Assembly (NCBI RefSeq): GCF_988242995.1
Contig: NZ_OZ547043.1
DNA length: 64,000 nt
Direction: 5' to 3' (one strand)
The notes under the pieces were generated by a model that did not search any database, had not been told where the DNA came from, and saw nothing but the letters and a program-made list of their open reading frames with translations. Shown here piece after piece: positions 703 to 43,190 of this stretch. The translations under genes and the position numbers were made by a program. Every line of letters starts with the position of its first letter. Position 1 is the stretch's first letter.

Positions 703-890
703 TGACCATCAGCGATATCATTGAAATTATTGTCGTTTGCGCACTGATATTTTTCCCGCTGGGCTATCTGGCGCGGCACTCTTTGCGACGCATTCGCGAC
801 ACCTTACGTTTGTTCTTTGCTAAACCTCGTTATGTTAAACCGGCCGGGACGTTACGCCGCACGGAAAAAGCCAGGGCAACCAAAAAATGA
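699..890 (+). CDS. bcsF: Cellulose biosynthesis small membrane protein BcsF (63 aa)
   Basis: 63-aa ORF with one hydrophobic helix and basic C-terminus; ATG overlaps bcsE stop; position between bcsE and bcsG. Confidence 0.85.
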
Positions 891-2566
891 CTCAATTTAC
901 GCAAAATACCGCCATGCCTTCTTCCCTCTGGCAATACTGGCGCGGTCTTTCCGGCTGGAACTTCTATTTTCTGGTTAAGTTCGGCCTGTTGTGGGCGGGA
1001 TATCTTAACTTCCATCCGCTCCTCAATCTGGTGTTTGCCGCGTTTCTGCTGATGCCCATTCCGCGCTACAGCCTGCATCGCTTACGCCACTGGATTGCCC
1101 TGCCGATCGGCTTTGCTTTGTTCTGGCATGACACCTGGTTGCCTGGCCCGGAAAGCATAATGAGCCAGGGTTCGCAGGTGGCGGGGTTCAGTACCGATTA
1201 TTTAATCGACCTTGTCACACGCTTTATTAACTGGCAGATGATTGGGGCCATTTTTGTTTTATTAGTGGCCTGGTTATTCCTGTCACAATGGATTCGCATT
1301 ACCGTTTTTGTGGTTGCCATTCTGCTATGGCTGAACGTACTTACCCTGGCGGGACCAAGTTTCTCCTTGTGGCCAGCCGGTCAACCGACGACCACTGTAA
1401 CAACGACGGGTGGTAACGCAGCGGCAACCGTTGCGGCGACGGGTGGCGCACCGGTAGTGGGTGATATGCCCGCACAAACTGCACCGCCAACAACGGCGAA
1501 TCTTAACGCCTGGCTGAATAATTTCTATAACGCGGAGGCGAAACGTAAATCGACCTTCCCGTCTTCGCTGCCCGCTGATGCTCAGCCATTTGAACTACTG
1601 GTGATTAATATCTGTTCGCTTTCCTGGTCGGATATTGAAGCCGCCGGGTTGATGTCGCATCCGCTGTGGTCGCATTTCGATATTGAGTTCAAGAACTTTA
1701 ACTCCGCCACCTCCTACAGTGGCCCGGCGGCGATCCGTTTACTGCGCGCCAGCTGCGGGCAGACTTCGCACACTAATCTGTATCAACCGGCAAATAACGA
1801 CTGCTATCTGTTTGATAACCTGTCGAAACTGGGCTTTACCCAGCACCTGATGATGGGACATAACGGCCAGTTCGGCGGTTTTTTGAAAGAAGTTCGCGAA
1901 AATGGCGGCATGCAGAGCGAATTGATGGATCAAACAAATCTGCCGGTTATTTTGCTGGGCTTTGATGGTTCGCCGGTTTATGACGATACCGCCGTGCTTA
2001 ACCGCTGGCTGGACGTTACCGAAAAAGATAAAAACAGCCGTAGTGCCACGTTCTACAACACGCTTCCACTGCATGACGGCAACCATTATCCGGGCGTCAG
2101 CAAAACAGCGGATTACAAAGCGCGAGCGCAGAAATTCTTTGATGAGCTGGACGCCTTCTTTACTGAACTGGAGAAATCGGGTCGTAAAGTGATGGTGGTC
2201 GTGGTGCCGGAACACGGTGGCGCGCTGAAGGGCGACAGAATGCAGGTATCTGGCCTACGTGATATCCCTAGCCCGTCTATCACAGACGTCCCCGTTGGGG
2301 TGAAATTCTTCGGCATGAAGGCACCACATCAGGGGGCACCGATTGTCATCGACCAACCGAGCAGCTTCCTGGCTATCTCCGATCTGGTGGTTCGCGTTCT
2401 TGATGGCAAGATTTTCTCCGAAGACAATGTTGACTGGAAAAAACTCACCAGTGGGTTACCACAAACAGCACCGGTCTCCGAGAACTCAAATGCAGTAGTT
2501 ATTCAATACCAGGATAAACCGTACGTTCGCCTGAACGGCGGCGACTGGGTGCCTTACCCGCAATAA
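887..2566 (+). CDS. bcsG: Cellulose biosynthesis protein BcsG (559 aa), membrane-anchored alkaline-phosphatase-superfamily enzyme
   Basis: 559-aa ORF with N-terminal TM helices and a Thr/Ala/Gly-rich linker; ATG overlaps bcsF stop; recognised as E. coli BcsG/YhjU. Confidence 0.9.
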
Positions 2567-2571
2567 GAACG

Positions 2572-2602
2572 AAAAAGGCCGCAGAGTTTCACCCCTGCGG
2601 CC
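2572..2602 (-). terminator. Rho-independent terminator (hairpin ggccgcag...ctgcggcc with T-run on minus strand) downstream of ldr copy 1
   Basis: Inverted repeat GGCCGCAGAGTTTCACCCCTGCGGCC preceded on plus strand by an A-run; identical element repeated at 3055-3085. Confidence 0.6.
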
Positions 2603-2652
2603 TGGTCCGGGCGCAAATTGCCATTACGGCAGCCTGACGCCCGCATGACACG

Positions 2653-2760
2653 TTACTTCCGCTTATTCAGCGAGTTCACGATCAGACTGGCAAGAATGCC
2701 AGCAATGATCGGAGCCGCTAAATCATGCCAGAAGGCCATGCCCAGCTCTGCGAGCGTCAT
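2653..2760 (-). CDS. ldrD: Type I toxin Ldr family, 35 aa (MTLAELGMAFWHDLAAPIIAGILASLIVNSLNKRK)
   Basis: 35-aa peptide at the 3' end of the 80-aa ORF-track frame; ATG (plus-strand cat) at 2758-2760; hydrophobic helix plus KRK tail typical of Ldr toxins. Confidence 0.8.
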   Translation of the reverse strand: MTLAELGMAFWHDLAAPIIAGILASLIVNSLNKRK

Positions 2761-2804
2761 ATAGCCGCCTGTGTTGTAATGACAACGTTTCGCGGCTATT
2801 CTTG

Positions 2805-2872
2805 TATTGTTTGGATGCAAGAATGGCCCCCGTGGTGTTGTCAGGTGCATACCTGCAACGTGCGGGGGTTTT
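2805..2872 (+). ncRNA. rdlD: Candidate Rdl antisense RNA (antitoxin) of LDR copy 1; ends approximate
   Basis: Plus-strand GC-rich hairpin followed by TTTTCTCTC at about 2850-2876, antisense to the ldr mRNA leader; placement from known LDR architecture. Confidence 0.35.
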
Positions 2873-3054
2873 CTCTCTCCAGCAACCAATGCCACCAGGG
2901 ATTAAGCCCCCGCAACATTGCGCCTCACCGGAACCCTTCCGGCTTGACGCTGATTCTACGACTGTTTTTCTGTTCCGGAATCCATCACGTCTTCACTCTG
3001 TGCTGCGCATTCCGCAGAATATTATCCGCTTGCAACCGTTGCATTTTTCTTACG

Positions 3055-3085
3055 AAAAAGGCCGCAGAGTTTCACCCCTGCGGCC
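3055..3085 (-). terminator. Rho-independent terminator downstream of ldr copy 2
   Basis: Same hairpin as at 2577-2602 with A-run on plus strand. Confidence 0.6.
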
Positions 3086-3135
3086 TGATCCGGGCGCAAA
3101 TTGCCATTACGGCAGCCTGACGCCCGCATGACACG

Positions 3136-3243
3136 TTACTTCCGCTTGTTCAGCCAGTTCATGATCATACTGGCAAGAATGCCAGCAATGACCGGAGCCG
3201 CTAAATCATGCCAGAAGGCCATGCCCAGTTCTGCGAGCGTCAT
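3136..3243 (-). CDS. ldrD: Type I toxin Ldr family, 35 aa (MTLAELGMAFWHDLAAPVIAGILASMIMNWLNKRK)
   Basis: 35-aa peptide at 3' end of the 80-aa ORF-track frame; ATG (plus-strand cat) at 3241-3243; differs from copy 1 at 5 residues. Confidence 0.8.
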   Translation of the reverse strand: MTLAELGMAFWHDLAAPVIAGILASMIMNWLNKRK

Positions 3244-3291
3244 ATAGCCGCCTCTGTTGTAATGACAACGTTTCGCGGCTATTCTTGAGTG

Positions 3292-3356
3292 GTCTAGAGT
3301 CAAGATTAGCCCCCGTGGTGTTGTCAGGTGCATACCTGCAACGTGCGGGGGTTTTC
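3292..3356 (+). ncRNA. rdlD: Candidate Rdl antisense RNA of LDR copy 2; ends approximate
   Basis: Same GC-rich hairpin plus T-run as in copy 1, antisense to ldr leader. Confidence 0.35.
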
Positions 3357-3718
3357 TCTCTCCAGCGACCAATGCCACCAGGGATTAAGCCCCCGCAACA
3401 TTGCGCCTCACCGGAACCTTTCCGGCTTGCCGCTGATTCTACGACTGTTTTTTACCGTCAGCACCCGGCAATCTTCCTCATTGCGTGATGCCTTCCAGCT
3501 TAATTTCTTTATTTGCATTAGTTGCAGTTCATATCCGGGCTGACTCCAGACTGGTAGTGAAATGCGCAATTTTGTAGAATTGCGCCTCCTCGCGACCTCC
3601 CCAGTGAATCTGTTGCCTCATTTTTTACATACTGCGTATTCGACTTCTCCACCTGTTGCGCAAGAGAAACTGGGTTTATTCATTTTTGCGAGGCCGACTT
3701 CTTTCTGGACAGGACTTT

Positions 3719-4990
3719 ATGCAGCACAACACACTACCGAAACACGATCAGAAAATGCCGTTTACACGCTACGACTTCGGCTGGGTTTTATTATGCATAG
3801 GCATGGCGATTGGTGCCGGAACCGTGCTGATGCCAGTACAAATTGGCTTGAAGGGAATTTGGGTATTTATTACCGCAGCGATCATTGCTTATCCTGCCAC
3901 CTGGGTAGTGCAGGACATTTATTTAAAAACCCTTTCTGAAAGCGATTCCTGTAATGACTACACCGATATTATCAGTCATTACCTGGGGAAGAACTGGGGA
4001 ATTTTCCTCGGGGTTATCTACTTTTTGATGATTATCCACGGGATTTTTATCTACTCTCTCTCCGTGGTTTTCGACAGCGCCTCGTACCTGAAAACCTTCG
4101 GTTTAACCGATGCCGATCTTTCACAATCTCTACTTTATAAAGTCGCTATTTTCGCCGTACTGGTGGCGATTGCGTCTGGTGGTGAACGATTACTGTTTAA
4201 GATTTCCGGGCCAATGGTGGTGGTCAAAGTAGGGATTATTGTCGTGTTCGGTTTTGCGATGATCCCGCACTGGAATTTCGCCAATATAACCGCCTTCCCG
4301 CAAGCCTCCGTCTTTTTCCGCGATGTCCTGCTTACCATTCCATTTTGCTTCTTTTCTGCAGTATTTATTCAGGTACTAAACCCAATGAATATTGCCTATC
4401 GTAAACGGGAAGCGGATAAAGTACTGGCAACCCGGCTCGCGCTGCGTACCCACCGAATTAGTTATATCACGCTCATCGCGGTGATCCTGTTTTTTGCCTT
4501 TTCGTTTACCTTCTCAATTAGCCACGAAGAAGCCGTTTCTGCCTTTGAACAAAATATCTCGGCACTGGCACTGGCCGCGCAGGTGATCCCTGGGCATATC
4601 ATTCATATCACCTCTACGGTGCTGAATATCTTTGCCGTACTGACCGCATTCTTTGGCATTTATCTCGGTTTCCACGAGGCCATTAAAGGCATTATTCTCA
4701 ATCTGTTAAGCCGAATTATTGATACCAAGAAAATTAATTCACGCGTGCTGACTCTGGCGATCTGCGCTTTTATCGTCATTACGTTGACGATTTGGGTTTC
4801 GTTTCGTGTATCGGTGCTGGTGTTCTTTCAGTTGGGAAGCCCGTTATATGGCATTGTGTCGTGCCTCATTCCGTTTTTCCTGATCTATAAAGTCGCACAA
4901 CTGGAAAAACTTCGCGGATTTAAAGCCTGGCTGATTCTGCTTTACGGCATTTTGCTATGCTTGTCGCCACTGTTGAAGCTGATTGAGTAA
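3719..4990 (+). CDS. yhjV: Putative amino-acid transporter YhjV (HAAAP/serine-threonine transporter family), 423 aa
   Basis: Polytopic membrane ORF; start trimmed from ORF-track 3656 to ATG at 3719 ([10 protein letters not shown]...), giving the 423-aa length I recall for K-12 YhjV. Confidence 0.85.
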
Positions 4991-10760: not shown

Positions 10761-11468
10761 GCCTGACCTTTTTTGTTTTTTGCCCGGTCGGGTCAACGTT
10801 ATGAGGTGGGGATGCCGTACTAATTAACATCAGTGTAACAGTGCGGATCCTCCATAAAATGCCCCTCGTGACCTACAATCTGTCAACAGAATGTGAAAAC
10901 GTCAATACAGCCAACCGGGATTTACACCAACGGTGAGAATCCACAAACAAAGATTAAAAAAACTTCAAACAGCTATTTGCAGCAGAGAAATTTGTGCTAC
11001 TCCAACATGACCAGAACAATCAGCTTAATATTTAGCAACAATTGGTGATTAAGTTTTATGCATTTAGTGAAAAAAATCTGAGGAAAAGGTGGATATCTGA
11101 GCGATTAATACCATGAACGCTAAAACGCACAGGGGAAAATGCCAGCGCCAGCCATAAGTAACGCAAAAAAAGATTTAAGCAAATATAAAAAAAGACAATG
11201 GTTTCTGTCACAAATCCGTTAATGGATAGTGAGATATGGGGCGCAAATTTGGCAGGGAAATATGTGGTGTGTTGCCGTTTAGATCGGATAAGACGGATAC
11301 GCTGTATCCCACAATGAGTGCGGTGCCGAATTTGGTCGGTGCCAGAGGATTACTCGCCACTTCGTGGCTCGCCCTGCGGGCCGTTGCTGGCGCAACGTTC
11401 TCTCGCTTCGCTCGAGTCGAACCTCCCTGCCCCCGGAGGTTCTCATCCTCTTCAGGCCGCAGAAAGCA

Positions 11469-11497
11469 AAAAAACCAGCCCGTAGGCTGGTTTTTCT
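11469..11497 (-). terminator. Rho-independent terminator downstream of tRNA-Pro
   Basis: Hairpin CCAGCCCGTAGGCTGG flanked by A-run and T-run (aaaaaccagcccgtaggctggtttttc); may act bidirectionally. Confidence 0.7.
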
Positions 11498-11501
11498 AAA
11501 T

Positions 11502-11578
<77 letters not shown>

Positions 11579-28409: not shown

Positions 28410-29085
28410 GCGCCTATAAGGCTCTCTTACCAGCCGCGCCCTAACAGGCGCACACGATCTGACATTTGCATCCAACTTCGTTACTTACGGCCCGTAAACG
28501 GGCTGCCCGGATAGGGAATCGATAACTGCTCTCCCATTTTATCCTCTTCAAGCTGGTGCTTTATGTAATCCTGTATCTTCGCCGTGTTCTTACCCACTGT
28601 ATCGACGTAGTACCCTCTGCACCAGAACTCCCTGTTCCTGTATTTGAATTTCAAATCACCAAACTGCTCGTAAAGCATCAGACTGCTTTTCCCTTTCAGA
28701 TATCCCATAAAGCCGGATACGCTCATTTTGGGCGGGATCTCCACAAGCATATGGATATAATCTGCACAGCATTCAGCTTCCAGAATCCGTACGCTTTTCC
28801 ACTCACACAGCTTTCTCAAAATACTGCCTATTGCTCTACGCTTCTCTCTGTAGAACACCTGTCTTCGGTATTTTGGCGCAAAAACTATGTGATATTTACA
28901 GTTCCATCGGGTGTGCGCTAAGCTCTTTTCGTTCCCCATTGGGACCCCCTTTTGATTTCTTGTTTGACACTTGCAGTTGCCAGACCGCAAAGTGTTTTAA
29001 CAAATCAAAAGGGGTTTTAATAACTGGCTCAAAGCTGAAAGCTTTCCGGAACCCCCAGCCTAGCTGGGGGTTTTCTGTGCACAAT
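28410..29085 (-). mobile_element. IS200-like insertion sequence (IS200/IS605 family); boundaries approximate
   Basis: Single Y1-transposase gene flanked by about 70 bp (3' side) and about 150 bp (5' side) containing a strong hairpin (ACCCCCAGCCTAGCTGGGGGTT, 29053-29076), typical of the IS200 left end; inserted between the wecH and yiaA terminators. Confidence 0.7.
28481..28939 (-). CDS. tnpA: IS200/IS605-family Y1 transposase TnpA (152 aa)
   Basis: Start trimmed to ATG (plus-strand cat 28937-28939); MGNEKSLAHTRWNCKYHIVFAPKYRRQ... with HuH motif (YIHMLV) and catalytic Tyr region. Confidence 0.9.
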   Translation of the reverse strand: MGNEKSLAHTRWNCKYHIVFAPKYRRQVFYREKRRAIGSILRKLCEWKSVRILEAECCADYIHMLVEIPPKMSVSGFMGYLKGKSSLMLYEQFGDLKFKYRNREFWCRGYYVDTVGKNTAKIQDYIKHQLEEDKMGEQLSIPYPGSPFTGRK

Positions 29086-43074: not shown

Positions 43075-43190
43075 TGCCTGATGCGCTACGCTTATCAGGC
43101 CTACATGATTTCTGCAATATATTGAATTTGGTAGAATTTGTAGGCCGGATAAGGCGTTTTAGCCGCATCCGGCATAAACAAAGCGCACTA
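43075..43190. repeat. REP/BIME cluster (two REP-type palindromes) between avtA and ysaA
   Basis: gcctgatgcgctacgcttatcaggcctac and taggccggataaggcgttttagccgcatccggcat match the E. coli REP consensus. Confidence 0.8.

Follow-up and report, generated by a model that had tools for sequence, protein, structure and literature searches.

The interval between bcsG and yhjV in the DNA analyzed here, a stretch of 64,000 nucleotides that we call the window, very probably contains two tandem units of the LDR-D long direct repeat of E. coli, each of them a full type I toxin-antitoxin module (ldr/rdl), and the number of units is one state of a common polymorphism. It is a known toxin-antitoxin locus with common copy-number variation, and not a new duplication specific to one lineage.

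Architecture of the tandem array

Repeat search and pairwise alignment placed two direct repeats in this interval, with a period of 483 nt. The pairwise alignment of the two units contained 20 mismatches in 401 nt and no indels (95.0% identity), and the core recovered by the repeat search was a 300-nt direct repeat (2569-2868 and 3052-3351; spacing 483, 94% identity). The repeat is thereby confirmed as real, far beyond chance. The features are as follows.

887..2566, plus strand: bcsG, gene for cellulose phosphoethanolamine transferase, flanking the LDR-D site on its left side; 559-aa ORF, collinear with K-12 bcsG (b3538) and annotated as bcsG in matching genomes
2569..2969: LDR-D-type repeat unit 1, bcsG-proximal; direct repeat, spacing 483
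2576..2603, minus strand: intrinsic terminator of the unit 1 ldr mRNA; 11-bp stem with 8 GC pairs, then a T-run
2653..2760, minus strand: ldr toxin gene of unit 1, MTLAELGMAFWHDLAAPIIAGILASLIVNSLNKRK, with Ser for Trp30; 35-aa ORF, PF13940
2809..2874, plus strand: rdl antisense antitoxin RNA of unit 1; Rfam rdlD RF01813, 81.7 bits, full length (1-66)
2841..2918, minus strand: conserved 25-codon ORF in the unit 1 ldr leader (MLRGLNPWWHWLLERENPRTLQVCT), candidate leader ORF
2970..3051: spacer between the units, peculiar to tandem LDR-D arrays; contains the sequence upstream of the unit 1 ldr -10 region
3052..3452: LDR-D-type repeat unit 2, yhjV-proximal, counterpart of K-12 LDR-D
3059..3086, minus strand: intrinsic terminator of the unit 2 ldr mRNA, from the terminator search
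3136..3243, minus strand: ldr toxin gene of unit 2, MTLAELGMAFWHDLAAPVIAGILASMIMNWLNKRK; 35-aa ORF, PF13940
3292..3357, plus strand: rdl antisense antitoxin RNA of unit 2; Rfam rdlD RF01813, 87 bits, full length
3324..3401, minus strand: conserved 25-codon ORF in the unit 2 ldr leader, candidate leader ORF
3719..4990, plus strand: yhjV transporter gene, right flank; ATG at 3719 gives 423 aa, the same as K-12 b3539

The locus was assigned to LDR-D and not to LDR-A/B/C because it is flanked by bcsG (yhjU) and yhjV, and because it is 96-97.9% identical to K-12 LDR-D as against about 81% to LDR-A/B/C. The spacer of about 80 nt is not repeated, and its local alignments to the sequence downstream of unit 2 and to the K-12 LDR-A/B/C spacers were no better than those of shuffled sequences (z of 0-1.5; positive control, z of 93). 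An earlier note, made from the letters of the window, had proposed a tandem duplication of LDR-D units at this site, and the alignment, the PF13940 and RF01813 matches and the flanking genes all agree with it; the 35-aa Ldr ORF, the terminator hairpin and the plus-strand hairpin with T-run that it ascribed to each unit were indeed found in both. Its two-unit layout likewise stands, but the period is 483 nt where it gave about 482, and its unit boundaries, 2572-2973 and 3054-3453, have to be shifted leftward by 2-3 nt.

Copy number across E. coli

Of 5426 complete E. coli genomes, 3301 (61%) contain the unit-spacer-unit junction, and the four junction matches that were checked for place, two of them three-copy arrays, all lay at bcsG-yhjV. 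In about 60% of complete E. coli genomes the site has two or three copies, and the one-copy state of K-12 is the minority. In a sample of 59 chromosomes taken at even steps, 23 had one copy (about 39%), six had two (10%), and in the other 30 (51%) the best alignment started at the first unit, which was scored as three or more; two of these 30 were fetched and both had three copies. Three copies appear to be the commonest state at LDR-D, and the three-copy arrays keep the 483-nt period. Both toxin genes are already annotated by PGAP/RefSeq, and both peptides are present in public databases.

These counts bear on two other accounts of the second copy. Had the array arisen by a recent duplication in this lineage alone, and were it unusual among E. 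coli, the single unit at bcsG-yhjV in K-12 and in O157:H7 and the one intact ldr adjoining bcsG in E. albertii would be as expected. However, the units are only 95% identical, the spacer and junction are widespread, three-copy arrays were the commonest in the sample, and unit 1 resembles its neighbor, unit 2, less (94.1%) than it does first or middle units from other strains (96.8-97.3%); the junction count, the copy-number sample and the unit comparison together effectively refute this account, which we regard as highly improbable. The unusualness that the earlier note had implied is lost with it, although its statement on K-12 was accurate, since MG1655 has one unit here and three tandem units only at kdsA-chaA; it was also right that the copies are not a recent identical duplication. 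Even more improbable is an assembly artifact, in which a single LDR-D unit would have been expanded into two. Short reads can mis-assemble tandem repeats of about 480 nt, which was a concern of the earlier note, but the copies differ at 20 positions and by four amino acids, and this two-unit layout, alleles included, recurs at 99.1-99.5% identity in eight complete-genome records and several independent draft assemblies. The polymorphism of one, two or three units would most likely have arisen by unequal homologous recombination and gene conversion between units. Lineage-specific ldr duplications have been described (PMC2887945).

Toxins, leaders and antisense RNAs of the two units

Pfam PF13940 (Ldr_toxin) matched both peptides over residues 1-35, with 83.4 bits for unit 1 and 89.1 bits for unit 2 (cut-off 27); it was the only Pfam family matched, and an NCBIfam scan of the two peptides returned no family. 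The peptides differ at four of 35 positions (I18V, L26M, V28M and S30W, unit 1 to unit 2), and not at five as first counted, and four of the six differences between the coding sequences are non-synonymous. The unit 2 toxin differs from K-12 LdrD at two of 35 residues (F3L, V28M). The signature of the Ldr/Fst superfamily consists of a hydrophobic helix, a conserved Trp and a charged C-terminus (Fozo et al. 2010, PMC2887945); unit 2 (...AGILASMIMNWLNKRK) has both Trp30 and the KRK tail, while unit 1 (...AGILASLIVNSLNKRK) keeps the helix and the KRK tail and has Ser at position 30. Trp30 is present in 18 of 19 other variants, namely eight of the nine other members of the peptide cluster (the ninth has Cys) and all ten other peptides compared. 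The exact unit 1 peptide (P0004) occurs on 419 public contigs and the exact unit 2 peptide (P0001) on at least 1000, and the 191-nt allele of unit 1 is rare, being found at 99% identity or more in only eight complete-genome records. The Ser30 allele was seen in arrays of one, two and three units, and in one assembly it occupies both units, together with K-12-type Rdl tails. Most strains have Trp30 toxins in every LDR-D unit.

Terminators were found for all four transcripts, i.e., two ldr and two rdl. The 25-codon leader ORF is common to both window units, K-12 LDR-D and K-12 LDR-A, and had no match in the Pfam search. In the predicted fold of the leader, the Shine-Dalgarno sequence GGCGG pairs with AUAGCCGC, and this predicted pairing is invariant in 16 leaders; RNAalifold returned 55 pairs, none of them with compensatory changes, as the sequences are too similar, and the leader structure therefore stays at the level of prediction. 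A simple sigma-70 scan of the region gave no promoter above threshold, so that any promoter positions are putative; by eye, TTGTAA-17-TATTCT is a candidate rdl promoter and TAGAAT a candidate ldr -10 element. Upstream of this -10 element the two units differ, unit 1 having the spacer and unit 2 the yhjV-side flank, and the two toxin genes need not, therefore, be equally transcribed.

Both rdl matches to RF01813 exceeded its gathering score of 50. Each Rdl lies on the strand opposite to ldr, 49-114 nt upstream of the toxin ATG (at 2760 in unit 1 and 3243 in unit 2), and is predicted to fold into a single-stranded 5' tail and a terminator stem-loop (-30.1 kcal/mol for unit 1). All six differences between the two Rdl RNAs fall within the 17-nt tail, the 49-nt stem-loop being identical, and the tail of Rdl2 is identical to that of K-12 rdlD. 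The earlier note had expected each Rdl to pair best with its own leader, and the predicted tail duplexes conform to this, at -27.9 and -26.3 kcal/mol for the cognate pairs against -13.0 and -8.8 for the crossed ones. Over 16 LDR-D units, which are not independent of one another, the tail was the most variable segment (permutation p = 0.0002 for clustering), with a nucleotide diversity of 0.21 as compared to 0.045 overall and 0.048 at third codon positions.

By analogy with K-12, we infer that in this strain both copies are transcribed, and that their toxins are toxic and are repressed by Rdl. The minus strand of each unit would yield an ldr mRNA of about 370 nt, with a long structured 5' leader, the ORF of the 35-aa hydrophobic membrane toxin and the intrinsic terminator, and from the plus strand, inside the leader region, would come the 66-nt Rdl, fully complementary to the leader segment 49-114 nt upstream of the toxin start. 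Rdl would then pair with the leader, and RNase III would cut the duplex, as in K-12, where ldrD-rdlD double-stranded RNA is cleaved by this enzyme in vivo (PMC7373196). The block of toxin translation would be indirect: Rdl leaves the ldr ribosome-binding site uncovered, a separate hairpin is predicted to sequester this site, and the routes proposed in the literature are a leader ORF ('ldrX') and a refolded leader. In K-12, LdrD is toxic and RdlD represses it, and ldrX is a model that is unproven; toxicity on overexpression and its relief by the cognate Rdl are known for K-12 LdrD/RdlD only (PMC4147584).

What the differences between the units mean was considered in two ways. It is unlikely that the units have diverged in function, such that unit 2 is the working LdrD/RdlD pair, and unit 1, its toxin attenuated or in decay (Ser for Trp30, plus I18 and L26), keeps an Rdl and serves mainly as a spare antitoxin or is a relic. 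The signature Trp after the transmembrane helix is missing from unit 1, whose toxin may on that account be attenuated; its loss lowers confidence in full toxicity, not in homology, and the four non-synonymous changes among six and the rarity of the allele point the same way. Nonetheless, the ORF, start codon, Shine-Dalgarno hairpin, terminator and rdl of unit 1 are all intact, PF13940 still scores it at 83 bits, the allele is spread over hundreds of public contigs and has even been copied into the second unit of one assembly, and the prototype toxin Fst has Val at the signature position and yet is toxic, which shows that the Trp is not essential (PMC7472228). Somewhat less doubtful, but still only tentative, is the proposal that each tandem copy works as a cognate pair insulated from the other, with the Rdl tail and its leader segment as a specificity determinant that selection keeps different between copies, as in Sib/Ibs and Zor/Orz. 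The confinement of the Rdl differences to the tail, its high diversity, and the 13-19 kcal/mol by which cognate tail duplexes are predicted to be more stable than crossed ones all favor it, and discrimination by a few nucleotides has precedents in OrzO/OrzP (PMC8167048) and in Sib/Ibs (PMC2943612). On the other hand, the remaining 49 nt would pair without a mismatch to either mRNA, and crossed full Rdl/leader duplexes are still predicted at -117 to -128 kcal/mol; weak constraint on an unstructured segment of non-independent units could also generate high diversity. Strict distinctness of the tails within an array was rejected, since units 2 and 3 of isolate 68 share one tail, as do both units of L014.

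A bolder reading, offered with similar reserve, is that the 17-nt tail and the leader segment paired with it may form a hypervariable recognition module, which would diversify faster than synonymous sites and which gene conversion would reshuffle between units, whatever the toxin allele. Tandem units would then be partly insulated pairs, here a standard LdrD unit and a rare Ser30 unit with a private antitoxin tail. As a discovery the array carries little weight, the module, toxin family, antisense RNA and tendency to tandem duplication having all been described already. K-12 is, however, unrepresentative at LDR-D, and because most E. coli have two or three units, conclusions drawn in K-12 on 'the' ldrD/rdlD pair, such as deletion phenotypes and cross-talk, may not transfer. 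The concentration of natural variation in the Rdl tail also provides a ready-made allele series for the study of cognate recognition.

Relation to known systems

[quoted passage not shown] The toxin family of hok/sok is unrelated, and membership of the ldr leaders in hok/sok was rejected, as they scored 30.3 and 23.9 bits with Rfam RF01794 against a gathering score of 59, and the peptides matched PF13940 only. K-12 LDR-A/B/C (ldrABC/rdlABC, at kdsA-chaA) also consists of tandem ldr/rdl modules, alike in gene order and RNA elements, but differs in locus, in its 535-nt period, in nucleotide identity (about 81%), in its unrelated spacer, in toxin subgroup (...ILAGIITAAIVSWWRNRK), and in a 1-nt indel that alters the frame relation of the long upstream ORF to ldr.

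K-12 LDR-D (ldrD b4453, rdlD b4454) has the same site, bcsG-ldrD-rdlD-yhjV, and the same unit architecture. Unit 2 and its downstream flank are 97.9% identical to it in one alignment, and unit 1 together with bcsG is 96% identical to the K-12 region; however, K-12 has one unit and lacks the spacer of about 80 nt, and the extra, bcsG-proximal unit of the window differs in its Rdl tail and has I18, L26 and S30 in its toxin. Other two- and three-unit LDR-D arrays of E. coli (for example those of MEI003, ST2747, O111:H8 2009C-3675, isolate 68 and d1-58) share the site, the 483-nt period and the spacer, and RefSeq labels their toxins 'type I toxin-antitoxin system toxin Ldr family protein'. In MEI003, unit 1 is 100% identical to that of the window and the whole 1501-nt region is 99.5% identical; the two second units differ at eight positions (98.0% identity), some of which match the unit 1 state, a mosaic pattern that suggests local gene conversion.

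Two LDR-D-type modules between bcsG and yhjV

A repeat search returned direct repeats at 2569-2868 and 3052-3351, 94% identical at a spacing of 483, and pairwise alignment extended the shared part, without indels, to 2569-2969 (unit 1, next to bcsG) and 3052-3452 (unit 2, next to yhjV), where the similarity ends abruptly on both sides. The two units differ at 20 of 401 positions (95.0% identity). The features of the region are as follows.

887-2566, plus strand: left flank, bcsG ORF of 559 amino acids (from the ORF and K-12 collinearity)
2603-2576 and 3086-3059, minus strand: intrinsic terminators of units 1 and 2
2653-2760 and 3136-3243, minus strand: 35-codon ldr toxin ORFs of units 1 and 2
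2809-2874 and 3292-3357, plus strand: 66-nt rdl antitoxin RNA elements of units 1 and 2, each ending in a GC-rich hairpin and a T-run
2970-3051: inter-unit spacer of about 80 nt, found nowhere else in the window
3719-4990, plus strand: right flank, yhjV transporter ORF (from the ORF and K-12 collinearity)

The Pfam family PF13940 (Ldr_toxin) spans both peptides end to end (83.4 and 89.1 bits; cut-off 27), and the Rfam rdlD antitoxin family RF01813 matches both plus-strand elements at full length (81.7 and 87 bits; gathering score 50). The whole region is collinear with K-12 bcsG-ldrD-rdlD-yhjV; unit 2 with its downstream flank is 97.9% identical to K-12, and bcsG with unit 1 is 96.0% identical when set against the single K-12 unit, whereas the units are only about 81% identical to the K-12 LDR-A/B/C array. 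Together, the family matches, flanks and K-12 identities document that the region contains two ldr/rdl type I toxin-antitoxin modules of the LDR-D type. The anatomy described in the earlier note (repeats, toxin ORFs, terminators and plus-strand hairpins with T-runs) was thus recovered in full, except that the peptides, MTLAELGMAFWHDLAAPIIAGILASLIVNSLNKRK in one unit and MTLAELGMAFWHDLAAPVIAGILASMIMNWLNKRK in the other, are distinguished by four residues (18, 26, 28 and 30) and not by five. The coding sequences account for six of the 20 differences between units, four of them non-synonymous and two synonymous.

Copy number and history of the array

The second copy is very unlikely to be an assembly artefact: 20 sites distinguish it from the first, and the two-unit structure with matching alleles recurs at 99.1-99.5% identity in eight complete-genome records (MEI003, three ST2747 records, JNEC-KY178, ETEC1738 and two pig isolates), as well as in independent draft assemblies. 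As the earlier note stated, K-12 MG1655 has one unit at bcsG-yhjV and three only at kdsA-chaA; O157:H7 also has one copy at the LDR-D site. The rarity that the note implied for the tandem arrangement did not stand, however, since a 156-nt query across the junction (end of unit 1, spacer, start of unit 2), counted when covered at 80% or more, was found in 3301 of 5426 complete E. coli genomes (61%). Copy number was sampled at even steps along the ranking of matches to the whole 1501-nt region, giving 59 chromosomes and one plasmid record. One unit was present in 23 of the 59 chromosomes (record span 1018 nt) and exactly two in six (span 1501 nt); in the remaining 30 the best alignment starts only at the first unit, as expected with three or more units, and the two of these that were fetched both had three units at a 483-nt period at the bcsG-yhjV site. 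Two more junction matches, from different ranking positions, also lay at bcsG-yhjV, and a 191-nt unit-internal query matched a median of three places per genome. RefSeq labels such loci 'type I toxin-antitoxin system toxin Ldr family protein (x2)' or '(x3)', and lineage-specific duplication of ldr loci, with Ldr numbers that vary widely from one E. coli or Shigella genome to the next, is on record (Fozo et al. 2010, PMC2887945). On the junction frequency, sampled copy numbers, annotation and this earlier work, the locus represents a type I toxin-antitoxin module that was known before, at a copy number common in E. coli and with one of its units carrying a rare toxin allele; the one-copy condition of K-12 and O157:H7 is the minority.

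Unit 1 is 100% identical to unit 1 of MEI003 and 96.8-97.3% identical to the first or middle units of other strains, but only 94.1% to unit 2 of the window, which groups with K-12 and the last units of other strains (97.3-98.0%). Since units group by position across strains, the duplication, judged from sequence, is older than the divergence of the strains compared. The bcsG-proximal unit is the constant position of the Ser30 toxin allele, in arrays of one (locus L018), two (L013-L015, L017) or three units (L016); in L014 (ERZ28769566 contig NODE_3) it is in both units, each with a K-12-type Rdl tail. The combinations in L014, L016 and L018 indicate that toxin and antitoxin-tail alleles have been reshuffled between units, a pattern that unequal crossing-over and gene conversion between units would be expected to produce. 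E. albertii has one intact ldr adjoining bcsG, plus degenerate LDR-like remnants farther off. Downstream, in loci L009-L012, other genes replace the immediate yhjV neighborhood, among them one for an Imm57-domain protein and, in a single strain, one for an IS transposase; L010 has a further LDR-like fragment about 1.8 kb away. In uropathogenic E. coli EcPF5 (L019, 1-1133), the annotation gives the bcsG beside a two-unit LDR-D array as a pseudogene, interrupted by an internal stop.

The unit-1 toxin and the ldr leader

The unit-1 toxin has Ser30 in place of the Trp that is a signature of the Ldr/Fst superfamily (Fozo et al., PMC2887945). All ten other Ldr peptides from the fetched loci have this Trp, as do eight of nine other retrieved cluster members, the remaining one having Cys; the 191-nt unit-1 allele was found at 99% identity or more in only eight complete-genome records. 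The substitution could attenuate the toxin. Against this, neither the ORF nor any of the RNA signals is disrupted, the unit-1 peptide is on 419 public contigs (at least 1000 carry that of unit 2), and the Fst prototype, which is toxic, has Val at the signature position (PMC7472228).

[quoted passage not shown] RNase III cuts the ldrD-rdlD duplex in vivo (PMC7373196). In both units, rdl lies on the opposite strand, 49-114 nt upstream of the ldr ATG, and is predicted to fold into a single-stranded 5' tail of 11-16 nt followed by a long terminator stem-loop (-30.1 and -29.5 kcal/mol). A consensus fold predicted from 16 distinct leaders pairs the ldr Shine-Dalgarno (GGCGG) with AUAGCCGC in an invariant hairpin and puts the Rdl target in a long hairpin of its own; this fold is a prediction only, because covariation support was absent among the 16. 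We infer by analogy with K-12 that the standard model holds for both units, and with it transcription, toxicity and repression in this strain. Each unit would then yield an ldr mRNA that is stable and closed to translation, together with an Rdl whose 5' tail pairs with the leader, leading to RNase III cleavage and leaving the toxin untranslated, such that toxin would be made only once Rdl falls. The region upstream of the -10-like TAGAAT of ldr is outside the repeat and not shared by the units, being the spacer for unit 1 and the yhjV-side flank for unit 2; a simple promoter scan flagged nothing. The two toxin genes may therefore be expressed at unequal levels.

A long leader ORF from GUG (2761-2895 and 3244-3378, minus strand) runs without a stop as far as the toxin start in every unit compared. 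It shares the ldr frame in LDR-D units, where the ORF search accordingly lists 80-amino-acid ORFs; in K-12 LDR-A (among the K-12 units, L002) a 1-nt indel puts it out of frame and its UGA overlaps the ldr AUG (AUAUGA), a classic coupling arrangement. A second leader ORF of 25 codons, MLRGLNPWWHWLLERENPRTLQVCT (2841-2918 and 3324-3401, minus strand; SD-like GGUGAGG), is kept in both units, K-12 LDR-D and LDR-A, although the two types are about 81% identical in nucleotide sequence; Rdl covers the 3' half of this ORF, which had no Pfam match. The ldr leaders (2758-2911 and 3241-3394, minus strand) also match Rfam RF01794, 'sok (CssrC)', below threshold (30.3 and 23.9 bits; E = 2e-4 and 0.01; gathering score 59), which hints at a leader architecture shared with hok-type mRNAs. 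[quoted passage not shown] Other Rfam matches, all on the minus strand, were an RtT element adjoining a tRNA (11333-11578), the Hfq-binding sRNA STnc490 (28949-29072) and ES036 (CssrF; 43097-43139), the last barely over its gathering score.

Divergence of the Rdl tail

Nine of the 20 differences between units cluster at 2805-2825, a stretch that takes in the region where rdl transcription starts and the 5' tail of the RNA. The two antitoxin RNAs, Rdl1 and Rdl2, have six differences, all within the first 17 nt, the other 49 nt being identical. In line with what the earlier note expected, each Rdl is predicted to pair best with its own leader: cognate 17-nt tail-leader duplexes score -27.9 and -26.3 kcal/mol and crossed ones -13.0 and -8.8, and at full length the cognate duplexes score -143 to -145 and the crossed ones -117 to -128. 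Crossed full-length duplexes are still very stable, and cross-repression between the units may still occur.

Among 16 LDR-D units from eight genomes (L001, L003-L008 and the window), a small set of non-independent units, the tail is the most variable segment: nucleotide diversity is 0.21 there, compared with 0.048 at third codon positions, 0.014 in the Rdl stem-loop and 0.045 overall. A permutation test of such clustering, on the same non-independent units, gave p = 0.0002. The hot spot (2801-2825 and 3284-3308) takes in the tail and a few bases upstream of the rdl start, and at least six tail haplotypes occur among the 16 units, the stem-loop being almost invariant. Such variation might reflect strong selection for insulation of cognate pairs, but identical tails within arrays (units 2 and 3 of isolate 68; L014) and the small, non-independent sample argue against this, and the variability could instead stem from relaxed constraint on a segment that is unstructured. 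The variable Rdl tail, the most interesting lead of the locus, resembles the specificity regions of OrzO/OrzP (PMC8167048) and of Sib/Ibs (PMC2943612).
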